Shown: positions 2,388 through 35,186 of the stretch, piece after piece
Position numbering within the stretch: the stretch's first letter is position 1
How the letters are laid out: each line of letters opens with the position of its first letter
From: Candidatus Woesearchaeota archaeon
Lineage (GTDB): Archaea > Nanobdellota > Nanobdellia > SCGC-AAA011-G17 > GW2011-AR18
DNA length: 60,452 nt
Assembly: GCA_018302105.1 (NCBI GenBank)
Contig: JAGWAD010000038.1
Span: 1-60,452, forward strand
Reading direction: 5' to 3'
Translations under genes and position numbers: made by a program
The notes under the pieces: model-generated
Databases searched by the model: none
What the model was told of the DNA's origin: nothing
Seen by the model: the letters and a program-made list of their open reading frames with translations, nothing else

Positions 2388-2864
2388 TTATTTCTTAGTA
2401 TTTTCTGGTTTAATTACAACATCATATAATTTCTCAAAAATAGACAGACATTCTTTCTGATCAGCTGAAAGGTGAGTACCTACAGGAGTTCCAAAAATAC
2501 AAGAGAAACGATCATTATTGTTTTTATAAAGACTAATAGAATCATCGCCATTAAATTTCATATCAGAATTTAAAGTTGGTCTATAATCTCCATAAGGTCT
2601 GTCATTAGCATCATTTATTTGCAAAGTAATAGTTTCTCCATCAAATAATACATTCTTTCTGTATACCACAAATTTTTTATTAGGTTGAACATTTCTTTCA
2701 CAATTTCTTTGAAATTCATCACAAGCTATATCTGAATTATTTAATACATAATTCCATAGAGTTCTTAGCTTATCATTTATATTTAGTTCTTTAGAGTCTA
2801 CATCAGATGAAACTACTAAACCAAATGTTAAAATTCCTGTTTGAATTAATTTTGTTAATAACAT
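2388..2864 (-). CDS. secreted or membrane-anchored hypothetical protein
   Basis: 158 aa with an N-terminal hydrophobic signal/anchor (MLLTKLIQTGILTFGLVVS). Confidence 0.5.
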   Translation of the reverse strand: MLLTKLIQTGILTFGLVVSSDVDSKELNINDKLRTLWNYVLNNSDIACDEFQRNCERNVQPNKKFVVYRKNVLFDGETITLQINDANDRPYGDYRPTLNSDMKFNGDDSISLYKNNNDRFSCIFGTPVGTHLSADQKECLSIFEKLYDVVIKPENTKK

Positions 2865-6806: not shown

Positions 6807-7364
6807 ATGGCTTCAGTATTATTAACTATTTTCCTGATATTATTGACTATCTTAATTATTTATATTATTATAATATTTAACAGTTTAATTAGCTTAAAAA
6901 ATAACATTTCAAAATCTTGGTCAAATATTGATGTTTTATTAAAACAAAGATCAGAGGAAATACCAAATTTAGTGGAAACTGTAAAAGGCTATATGAAACA
7001 TGAAAAATCTCTGCTTTTAGAAATAACAAAAGAAAGAACCTCATTAATTAATTCCAGTTCTTTATCAGAAAAAGCAAAAGTAGACAATGCAATTTCTTCT
7101 TCATTAAAAACAATATTTGCAGTATCAGAAAAATATCCAAAGTTAAGAGCAAATGAGAATTTTTTAAAATTGCAGAATAGGATTACAGGATTAGAAAATG
7201 AATTATCAGATAGAAGAGAATTCTATAATGATTCTGTAACAATTTATAATACAAGAATTCAATCATTTCCAGATTTATTCATAGCAAAAGTCTTTAATTT
7301 TAATGCTAAAGAATTATTCAGAGTTTTAGAAGAAGAAAGGAAAGTTGTTAAAACAAACATATAA
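6807..7364 (+). CDS. lemA: LemA family protein
   Basis: An N-terminal TM, then ..FNSLISLKNNISKSWSNIDVLLKQRSEEIPNLVETVKGYMKHEK..YPKLRANENFLKLQ..REFYNDSVTIYNTRIQSFP.., matching the LemA consensus. Confidence 0.9.
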   Translation: MASVLLTIFLILLTILIIYIIIIFNSLISLKNNISKSWSNIDVLLKQRSEEIPNLVETVKGYMKHEKSLLLEITKERTSLINSSSLSEKAKVDNAISSSLKTIFAVSEKYPKLRANENFLKLQNRITGLENELSDRREFYNDSVTIYNTRIQSFPDLFIAKVFNFNAKELFRVLEEERKVVKTNI

Positions 7365-12782: not shown

Positions 12783-12800
12783 TTTTAGTTAAAATTGAAC

Positions 12801-13068
12801 GTAGGCATGCCTGAAAGTGGACACAACTATCCTACTAAGTTTAACCCCGGCCATTCCTCAATCCCGCGCCCCTAAAAGCATTGACATAATTGCTTAGTGT
12901 TGCTCCATTCCTGGCCTCACACCCTTCGCAATCATGACAACCAATCAGGACAGAATATCCTTGTAGTTGCCAAGACTTAGCAAAATAATCATGCCGCCTT
13001 CCAAGCTTCAGCTCTGCTAAAGACCGTTTACAGTTACAGGTGCGGCCTAAACACCCAGCCTAGCCTAC
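12801..13068 (-). ncRNA. ffs: signal recognition particle RNA (archaeal 7S/SRP RNA)
   Basis: GC-rich island. Minus-strand read: 5' GUAGGCUAGGCUGGGUG..CCUGUAAC.. (Alu-domain motifs) .. GUGAGGCCAGGAAUGGAGCAACAC (helix-8 GGAA-loop/AGCA motif) .. GCCUAC 3', with the 5'/3' ends complementary. Confidence 0.85.
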
Positions 13069-13160
13069 AAATAAATAAGGTATTAAAACTTTAAAAGAGT
13101 TTTGGAATATTTTTTATAAGCTTTAAAAACATTTAAATAAAATAAAATACTAAATATTCT

Positions 13161-24916: not shown

Positions 24917-25689
24917 CTACAATTAATTATATTTGTCGTTCCACCTAAACGATTAGAAGATCCTGTAGAAAATAAGGTAGCAGTTCCATTATTGGGATCA
25001 ATTACATATGTTCCATTTATAATGCCAGAATCTTCTTCTTTGGTAGGAAAACCATATACATCCGCACTAAACATATCAAAAAATTTTGTACCCCTTGAAA
25101 AATTAAATTTCAGTTTATAGGTTTTTTCTGTAGAAAAATTTCCTTTGTAAAGGTAATGTTCAGCAATAACCAAATTATGATAATCTTCCGGATCGTGACA
25201 ATAACTTGCATCAATATATTCTCCTCTAATACGTTTTTCACCCCTTCCAGCTATCTCATTATATATTGACCAAATTTCTTCTCTTCTAAGTTGCCAGCCA
25301 GTAGGATCATAAACTTTTTCTTTTCCTTCAGATCCTTTATATAACAAATGTAGAAAATCTACAAATCTCCTTAAATTTAAATTAATATTACCTAAATTTA
25401 GATTTAAAGTCAAAGCATCTCTCCAATTAAGTGTATTTATATAATTTTTTCCATCAAATTCCATTGCAAAATCTTCCAAAGAGAATTTAAGCTCACTTCC
25501 AACAGCTTTAACTTTTTCACTTAATCCCAGCCTATGTTTAGAAACCATTAAATCTGGATAATTTCTAGAACCATGTTTTTTACTCGGAAGTATAATATAA
25601 TCATGGGGATTTTCAGATTTATCTAAACCAAAAATAGGAAGAACCTCGACACAAATTTCGTTTGATACCACAATTAAAATATAACCCAA
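24802..25689 (-). CDS. hypothetical protein (TTG start in ORF track; start uncertain)
   Basis: 295-aa ORF with protein-like composition; no family recognised. Confidence 0.5.
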   Translation of the reverse strand: MGYILIVVSNEICVEVLPIFGLDKSENPHDYIILPSKKHGSRNYPDLMVSKHRLGLSEKVKAVGSELKFSLEDFAMEFDGKNYINTLNWRDALTLNLNLGNINLNLRRFVDFLHLLYKGSEGKEKVYDPTGWQLRREEIWSIYNEIAGRGEKRIRGEYIDASYCHDPEDYHNLVIAEHYLYKGNFSTEKTYKLKFNFSRGTKFFDMFSADVYGFPTKEEDSGIINGTYVIDPNNGTATLFSTGSSNRLGGTTNIINCSYSKCVVSSLNIGIRPVKLYNGEILEQTNFLSSLVKFE

Positions 25690-25734
25690 AAGAATTTAAA
25701 GCTTTCACCCGAACAATTACACTATTTCACAATT

Positions 25735-33062: not shown

Positions 33063-33167
33063 TGCGCGAGCCGGGAAAATCATAAACTAAGCAATAAACT
33101 TAATCTAATTTGAACCCGGGTCTCAACGTTGGCAACGTCGAATACTAGGCCACTATACTACTCGCGC
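33063..33167 (-). tRNA. tRNA-Gly (anticodon GCC) with an about 32-nt intron in or after the T-loop
   Basis: Minus-strand fold: GCGCGAG-TA-GTAT-AGTGGCCTA-GTAT-T-CGACG-TTGCCAA-CGTTG-AGAC-CCGGG-TTCAAAT-[TAGATTAAGTTTATTGCTTAGTTTATGATTTT]-CCCGG-CTCGCGC-A. All four stems pair. CCA is not encoded. Confidence 0.85.
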
Positions 33168-34951: not shown

Positions 34952-35098
34952 TGGTGGGCCCACCCAGAATCGAACTGGGGACTTACACCTAACTTATAAC
35001 CAAATAACGATTTCGTCACCTAGCCTATTGTAAGGGTGTCGTCATTAGCAGAATATCCTAGAACTTTCTAAGATATTTAGCCGCTAGACCATGGGCCC
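34952..35098 (-). tRNA. tRNA-Val (anticodon UAC) with two introns (D-loop about 32 nt; canonical 37/38 about 38 nt), CCA encoded
   Basis: Minus-strand fold: GGGCCCA-TG-GTCT-AGCGGCTAA-[ATATCTTAGAAAGTTCTAGGATATTCTGCTAA]-TGAC-G-ACACC-CTTACA-[ATAGGCTAGGTGACGAAATCGTTATTTGGTTATAAGTT]-A-GGTGT-AAGTC-CCCAG-TTCGATT-CTGGG-TGGGCCC-A-CCA. Confidence 0.85.
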
Positions 35099-35186
35099 AT
35101 AAGAAAATTGCAACAAATAAGCTCTTAAAAATGTTTCCATTACCAAAATTAAAAAGAGTTTATTGTAAAGATAGTAATTATATCTC

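Follow-up and report, generated by a model that had tools for sequence, protein, structure and literature searches.

Does the stretch of DNA at 34952-35098 encode a usable tRNA, and if so, where do the two sequences that interrupt it begin and end? The window, by which we mean the whole stretch of 60,452 nt that was analysed, belongs to a Woesearchaeota genome of 1.15 Mb in 42 contigs (27.7% GC, 98% complete). Woesearchaeota are members of the DPANN archaea. An earlier note, made from the letters alone, had read the locus as a 147-nt tRNA-Val(UAC) gene carrying one intron in the D-loop and a second one in the anticodon loop. Elsewhere in the window, the one Rfam match is an archaeal SRP RNA at 12799-13070 on the minus strand (RF01857, 126.7 bits), and the GatB encoded nearby shares 70-73% identity with proteins from genomes of groundwater Candidatus Woesearchaeota.

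Structure of the tRNA-Val(UAC) gene

The tRNA-Val(UAC) gene occupies 147 nt of the minus strand, 34952-35098, and contains two BHB introns. The earlier reading thus holds, with the ends, the stems, the invariant bases and the ARAGORN call of the spliced product all in agreement. In the best parse of a BHB-aware scanner the gene scored 25 and every arm was paired. Read from 35098 to 34952, the minus strand starts with GGGCCCA-UG-GUCU-AGCGGCU and ends with CCCAG-UUCGAUU-CUGGG-UGGGCCC-A-CCA. The parts of the gene and its surroundings are the following.

34952..35098, minus strand: whole tRNA-Val(UAC) gene, from the sequence; ARAGORN with introns allowed gives the same ends, and this is the best parse of the BHB-aware scanner
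35123..35130, minus strand: putative TATA-like box TTTTAAGA at -32 to -25, read from the sequence and inferred only
35079..35098, minus strand: exon 1, RNA positions 1-20, with the acceptor 5' strand, U8, G9, the D-stem 5' strand and D-loop AGCGGCU
35046..35078, minus strand: intron 1, 33 nt, inserted after the 7th of the 8 D-loop nucleotides (about 20a/21)
35029..35045, minus strand: exon 2, RNA positions 54-70, with A21, the D-stem 3' strand UGAC, G26 and the anticodon-stem 5' strand, and with the loop CUUACA that holds the anticodon UAC
34991..35028, minus strand: intron 2, 38 nt, at the canonical 37/38 site, strict hBHBh'
34952..34990, minus strand: exon 3, RNA positions 109-147, with A38, the anticodon-stem 3' strand, variable loop AAGUC and then the T-arm, the acceptor 3' strand, A73 and CCA
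34952-34954, minus strand: genome-encoded 3' CCA, from the sequence

The purine-rich GGAAACA upstream of the TATA-like TTTTAAGA is a possible BRE, and the two together make up a putative archaeal promoter. Once 35046-35078 and 34991-35028 are removed, the cloverleaf pairs in 7/7 positions of the acceptor stem, 3/4 of the D-stem, 5/5 of the anticodon stem and 5/5 of the T-stem. The D-stem mismatch, U13-U22, is common to all orthologues. U8, A14, GG, A21, U33 and UUCGA are all present in the spliced sequence, and ARAGORN calls this 76-nt product tRNA-Val(tac). The unspliced 147-nt pre-tRNA has a minimum free energy of -60.4 kcal/mol against a shuffle mean of -38.1 (z = -5.9), with 0/200 shuffles as good.

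BHB modelling, which the earlier note had put forward as a check, was run on both inserts and yielded a BHB motif at each, strict for intron 2 and relaxed for intron 1. The claim that the second insert follows anticodon-loop position 37 and covers 34991-35028 proved exact to the nucleotide. Its central helix is complete (4/4), with C32-U33-U34-A35 facing a UAAG (34993-34996) located just 5' of the last two intron bases. Both bulges, CA|A and UU|A, are 3 nt long, the outer helix is the 5-bp anticodon stem, and the inner helix consists of 3 bp followed by an internal hairpin. The canonical archaeal 37/38 tRNA intron with its hBHBh' motif was reportedly laid out by Marck and Grosjean in 2003. Intron 2 is such an intron in every respect, and no difference was seen in the 32-35 helix, the 3-nt bulges or the anticodon-stem outer helix.

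The three exons are collinear within 147 nt, unlike those of a split or permuted tRNA gene. Group I and group II introns have a ribozyme core and run to hundreds of nucleotides, in contrast to Val inserts of 33 and 38 nt, and Rfam intron families gave no match to these inserts even at E <= 10. A box C/D guide RNA would carry a C box (RUGAUGA) and a D box (CUGA), yet neither intron has CUGA or UGAUGA, the nearest C-box-like word in intron 2 being GUGACGA only. The arrangement found is that of a multiple-intron tRNA, a collinear gene with at least two BHB introns of which one lies outside 37/38.

The D-loop intron and the length of the mature tRNA

The D-loop insert had been placed by the earlier note at 35045-35076 (32 nt), with a 77-nt tRNA and an encoded CCA as the outcome. 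A D-loop intron with a BHB is indeed present, the CCA is encoded, GCTAA does flank the insert on both sides (35077-35081 and 35045-35049) and the insert does form its own hairpin ATATCTTAGAA/TTCTAGGATAT, with one G-U pair. However, the intron most likely comes to 33 nt (35046-35078) rather than 32, and the mature tRNA to 76 nt with the 8-nt D-loop AGCGGCUA, not 77 nt, as judged from both the BHB and the orthologues. ARAGORN accepts the 76-nt and the 77-nt product alike.

Excisions from the D-arm were listed exhaustively under the rule that the cuts fall between the second and third base of two 3-nt bulges that are 4 bp apart. This list held one outstanding BHB (BHB1), at RNA positions 21-53, that is 35046-35078, with a central helix of 4/4 and an inner helix of 11 bp. 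Cutting at 35045-35077 is equivalent and leaves an identical spliced product. The elements of the motif are as follows, together with its two 3-nt bulges, CU|A (35078-35080) and UA|A (35045-35047).

35081..35084, minus strand: exon strand G15-C16-G-G of the BHB1 central helix, paired with intron bases 35048-35051 (CUGC)
35052..35077, minus strand: BHB1 inner helix h', an 11-bp hairpin in the fold with a 4-nt loop; 12 bp are possible on paper

The unconstrained minimum free energy fold already holds the central helix, the 3-nt 5' bulge and the hairpin of BHB1, and it lengthens the central helix in a way that abolishes the 3' bulge. When both BHBs and the D stem are enforced, the energy is -56.3 kcal/mol versus the optimum of -60.4, a cost of only 4, while shuffles average -38. 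The 3' bulge is closed by an outer helix of just 2 bp, A14-U55 and U13-G56, whose register and that of the D stem compete; if the D stem is formed, the 3' cut falls within a 2x4 internal loop. Because the 3' bulge is closed by these two competing pairs, BHB1 is best described as relaxed (HBh'-like). Motif quality is also partly circular as evidence, since the scanner picks BHBs by design, and the exhaustive excision list, shuffled introns and intronless orthologues serve as the controls. With shuffled introns, an equivalent BHB arose in only 0.6-10% of trials per gene.

A different placement of the same two introns would have a 32-nt D-loop intron somewhere within 35045-35081 and a 77-nt tRNA with the 9-nt D-loop AGCGGCUAA. 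ARAGORN also calls that product tRNA-Val(tac), 9-nt D-loops are present in other tRNAs of the host genome, and a one-base shift is conceivable at BHB1 because its 3' cut sits in a poorly closed bulge. Yet six equivalent 32-nt excisions lead to the 77-nt product and none of them is a BHB, the central helix reaching at most 3/4 and the inner helix 0-1 bp, compared with 4/4 and 11 bp for the 33-nt excision. As the 33-nt excision alone has a good BHB, 76 nt is preferred over 77. Additionally, no Val(UAC) orthologue was found with a 9-nt D-loop, and we regard the 77-nt product as improbable.

The orthologues come from a search of 40 relatives with the Val(UAC) gene, in which matches were parsed by the BHB-aware scanner and Val(UAC) was located in nine. 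Two genomes from other genera of the same family (G002 and G023) have both introns at identical sites. The D-loop intron only is present in G021, which belongs to the same family but to another genus than the host, and in G032, from another family of the order. Four genomes of the host family (G005, G012, G024 and G016) have no introns in Val(UAC). The remaining genome, G015, is of the same family and carries a 24-nt D-arm intron plus an insert after position 37, the latter read by eye (L004, G015:C13, about 7152-7297, minus strand). Parsed by eye, the G015 D-arm intron lies at 23/24, 3 nt further 3' than the common D-loop site, with GGUA/UACC as its central helix. Such a shifted position could reflect sliding or an independent gain.

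Apart from G015, the D-loop intron sits at an identical site in Val(UAC) of four genera of the host family and of one other family. It measures 31-35 nt in G002, G023, G021 and G032, where its bulges are YU|A and NA|A or AU|A, and the cuts in all five genomes, the host included, follow the pattern ...GG(Y)U|A ... NA|A-UGAC. Across these five genomes the central helix is paired in 19/20 cells, and exon position 16 covaries with its intron partner, C16-G becoming U16-A or U16-G in the orthologues. No sequence kinship is seen among the inner hairpins of the five introns; of their first five pairs, 23/25 nevertheless form. All five spliced products have an 8-nt D-loop, AG(C/U)GG(C/U)UA. Intronless Val(UAC) genes have D-loops of 8 nt in G005, G012 and G024, the three nearest to the host gene, and of 7 nt in G016, and the D-loop of host Val(GAC) is also 8 nt. 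The orthologues and the intronless products therefore support a 33-nt intron and, probably, a mature tRNA of 76 nt.

The D-loop intron of G021 is missing from the congeneric G012 and G024, and the mature sequences of the three are nearly identical. This presence and absence within one genus points to a recent gain or loss. Taken alone, Val(UAC) is one more multi-intron archaeal tRNA. With zero, one or two introns in this gene, placed at a fixed D-loop site or, in one case, 3 nt beyond it, the close relatives nevertheless provide clean natural material for the study of intron gain, loss and sliding. The encoded CCA varies as well; it is present in Val(UAC) of the host (G000), G015 (L004) and G021 (L022), absent from the seven other orthologues examined, and absent from 17 other host genes with an intact T-arm.

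The processing that we propose would run as follows. The locus would be the genome's sole tRNA-Val(UAC) gene and would give rise to a pre-tRNA of about 147 nt, made up of exons of 20, 17 and 39 nt with two protein-spliced BHB introns between them. The 3' part of each intron would pair with four exon bases that lie shortly before the 5' splice site, namely G15-C16-G-G of the D-loop in the case of intron 1 and positions 32-35 of the loop in that of intron 2, and this intron-exon pairing would result in a 4-bp central helix between two 3-nt bulges. EndA would then cleave between the second and third base of each bulge, and RtcB would ligate the exons, yielding a tRNA of 76 nt that has the D-loop AGCGGCUA and its genome-encoded CCA. 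Taken as a whole, this model of EndA/RtcB splicing of 35046-35078 and 34991-35028 is very probably correct. We infer transcription, cleavage and ligation from observed features, namely the motifs, their conservation and covariation in relatives, the match to orthologues that lack introns, and the enzyme genes encoded in the genome.

tRNA introns across the genome

The earlier note had surmised that introns of this kind pervade the genome, and a census bears it out, with introns in at least 17 of the 23 tRNA genes that could be modelled and two or three introns in 12 of them. By intron number, six genes have none, five have one, eleven have two and one (tRNA-Phe) has three. ARAGORN accepted 23/23 after in-silico splicing. 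Thirteen introns are located at 37/38, seven at 59/60, three at 53/54, and one each at 56/57 and 22/23. Four introns lie in the D-loop, three at the position seen in Val, after the 7th loop base, and a single intron at 30/31 is doubtful. With the central helix required to be perfect (4/4), only about 16 genes were recovered; T-arm introns were modelled with a 3/4 central helix and a long inner helix. As several long tRNA-like loci resisted parsing, including a 157-nt gene on contig C28 and an Arg(UCU)-like gene on contig C22, the census covers about 23 of the 35-45 genes expected and gives minimum figures. GC-rich islands were tried as a tRNA locator and rejected as useless (666 islands).

The other tRNA of the window for which a non-canonical intron had been claimed, tRNA-Gly(GCC) at 33064-33167 on the minus strand, does have a T-loop intron at 59/60. 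This intron is 32 nt long (33077-33108), with a boundary that is ambiguous by one U. Its BHB is relaxed, combining a central helix of 3/4 with an inner helix of 10 bp and the T stem as outer helix, and the gene has no encoded CCA.

Several side observations were made in the course of the census. tRNA-Trp(CCA) (G000:C26:12135-12288, plus strand) has two introns, and the one at 37/38 is 58 nt long and contains the C/D-box-like words GAUGA, CUGA, AUGAUU and CUGAUGA, which recalls the guide-RNA intron of euryarchaeal tRNA-Trp. tRNA-Ile(UAU) (G000:C22:25854-26008, minus strand), with introns at 37/38 and 59/60, adjoins a two-intron tRNA-Glu(UUC) at 25527-25698. An orphan tRNA-Pro(UGG)-like 3' part was found on contig C40 (about 2560-2684, plus strand), in which an insert-bearing anticodon arm is accompanied by an intact T-arm and the acceptor 3' strand UAGCCCC. 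No 5' acceptor partner for it occurs within 330 nt, and none that is convincing elsewhere in the genome. An intron in the acceptor or D region of this gene, or a split tRNA, may be the explanation.

Could the Val introns be mobile copies, recently transposed from other tRNA genes of the same genome? In the Thermoproteales, related introns have reportedly been seen in different tRNAs, and this speaks for transposition there. Recurring sites in the host (three D-loop introns after the 7th loop base, seven introns at 59/60, three at 53/54) would suit this idea, as would the central helices, which are built on the conserved tRNA bases GG and UUCRA so that one intron would fit many tRNAs. The presence of the intron in G021 and its absence from G012 and G024, inside one genus, speaks for mobility too. 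Among 18 introns from the first 16 genes modelled, however, the best local alignment score was 19, equal to the median of shuffled-set maxima (19) and below the 95th percentile of 24. The introns are no more alike than shuffled ones, which gives no support to the relatedness between tRNAs that had been raised as a mobile-intron hypothesis. Nor is the Val gene flanked by a homing-endonuclease-like gene; its flanks hold CorA and an 81-aa ORF without a family. Recent transposition within this genome is accordingly held to be unlikely.

Ordinary tRNA finders miss most tRNA genes of the host. Default ARAGORN reported zero tRNAs across the whole window, and Rfam gave no tRNA match at the Val locus, either at its gathering threshold or at E <= 10. 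Genome-wide, the Rfam tRNA model detects only 12 tRNAs and only 18 intact T-arms are present; across relatives, Rfam-detected tRNAs number from 14 to 31. With introns allowed, ARAGORN finds the correct ends of the Val gene, c[34952,35098], and models it as tRNA-Tyr(ata) with a single 68-nt intron. Given that multi-intron genes are missed or mislabelled to the extent that Rfam sees 12 tRNAs in a 98%-complete genome, claims of missing tRNAs in DPANN archaea need BHB-aware annotation.

That standard finders reject the Val locus would also be expected of a decaying or unprocessed tRNA pseudogene whose inserts are junk left in place. This is very hard to reconcile with the remaining evidence. No second Val(UAC) gene was found in a search of the host genome, and the locus is the sole gene able to read GUA and GUG. 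These two account for 42% of the valine codons across 280 long open frames, and the gene must therefore be expressed and spliced, if this codon count is a guide. Stems and invariant bases are all intact after excision, the BHB pairing is held by compensatory change across genera, and the same construction recurs in most other tRNA genes of the genome, which is 98% complete. The reading as tRNA-Tyr(AUA) with one 68-nt intron, although it is what ARAGORN outputs when introns are allowed, is refuted by the comparison with orthologues, which are plainly Val(UAC) with or without introns, and was rejected with near certainty, the anticodon AUA being implausible, the D-loop insert ignored and a separate tRNA-Tyr(GUA) gene present in the host genome.

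The splicing endonuclease and known systems

The two-intron structure of Val(UAC) is already known in kind, from the multi-intron tRNAs of Thermoproteales and of DPANN archaea. In the Thermoproteales (Pyrobaculum, Thermofilum, Caldivirga), multi-intron tRNAs were reportedly described by Sugahara et al. in 2008 and Fujishima et al. in 2010. The host resembles them in having genes with two or three BHB introns, placed at 37/38 and at D-arm or T-arm sites, in its mixture of strict and relaxed motifs, and in its recurring insertion sites. It differs in phylum and in enzyme type, and no intron-to-intron similarity was seen among 18 host introns.

The only EndA gene of the host (G000:C23:22500-23132; L026:1474-2109:-) encodes an alpha-type protein of 211 aa with PF02778 and PF01974. 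Among proteins of solved structure it comes closest to the N. equitans alpha subunit (1e-34) and the M. jannaschii alpha4 enzyme (1e-31), and a second EndA-like gene or beta subunit was not found in the host genome at E <= 10. Five relatives likewise have one EndA copy each. Pairwise sequence alignment places a 9-residue gap of the host enzyme opposite the Crenarchaea-specific loop (CSL) of A. pernix and a 6-residue gap opposite the lysine-rich insertion of N. equitans, and shows a core that is co-linear with the M. jannaschii alpha4 enzyme save for a single-residue gap. Features associated with broad specificity (L1/CSL, L2/ASL or L3 insertion; alpha-beta or epsilon architecture) are absent from the host EndA and from those of the five relatives. 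In all six proteins of the family the catalytic C-terminal half is essentially indel-free. The N-terminus of the host enzyme is extended by about 45 aa rich in Lys and Glu, a feature partly conserved in the five relatives.

Cleavage of non-canonical and D-loop introns has been tied to loop insertions of EndA (PMC3241643, PMC3239211). The Aeropyrum pernix enzyme is an (alpha-beta)2 heterotetramer that cuts the D-loop BHB intron of pre-tRNA-Thr2(UGU) alone, without guide RNA or other proteins, and needs its Crenarchaea-specific loop for efficient D-loop cleavage (Hirata et al. 2011, PMC3241643). Val(UAC) is comparable to this pre-tRNA in possessing a D-loop BHB intron whose removal is required for tRNA function. 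It differs in tRNA identity, in organism (DPANN) and in its second intron, and the host EndA, unlike that of A. pernix, is a single alpha-type protein without the CSL.

Disrupted tRNA genes in DPANN archaea with alpha4-type EndA were surveyed by Kaneta et al. 2018, with one Woesearchaeota genome included (PMC5829648). In that work, an L3 insertion was reported in diverse DPANN alpha4 EndAs, and tRNA disruption was linked to this lysine-rich 'L3' insertion, which is shared with N. equitans and ARMAN-2 (PMC5829648). The present genome agrees with that survey in lineage, in its many non-canonical or multiple introns, in its single alpha-type EndA and in the incomplete tRNA sets given by standard predictors (PMC5829648). 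It departs from it in that neither the host EndA nor those of the five relatives have an insertion at the L3 place.

The host family looks like an exception to the rule that links loops with broad specificity, and this would be the sole potentially new point. We suggest only tentatively, and with more doubt than confidence, that this Woesearchaeota family cuts relaxed D-loop and T-loop BHB introns with a single, minimal alpha4-like EndA devoid of a beta subunit and of all three insertions (CSL/L1, ASL/L2 and the N. equitans/ARMAN-2 L3), the features to which the current co-evolution model ascribes broad specificity. If this were true, broad specificity would have an origin not yet described, such as the Lys/Glu-rich N-terminal extension (about 45 residues), or alpha4 enzymes would be intrinsically more permissive than thought. 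Non-canonical introns combined with a loop-less, single-subunit EndA would offer a cheap and direct biochemical test of the notion that a specific loop means broad specificity.

Two further enzymes of tRNA maturation are encoded in the host genome, the RtcB ligase (PF01139, 474.6 bits) and an archaeal CCA-adding enzyme. The RtcB frame (G000:C8:7572-10394, minus strand) is 1005 aa long, and its Pfam match falls into two parts (positions 1-50 and 48-426), with an insertion the size of an intein, about 1.5 kb of in-frame sequence, between them.
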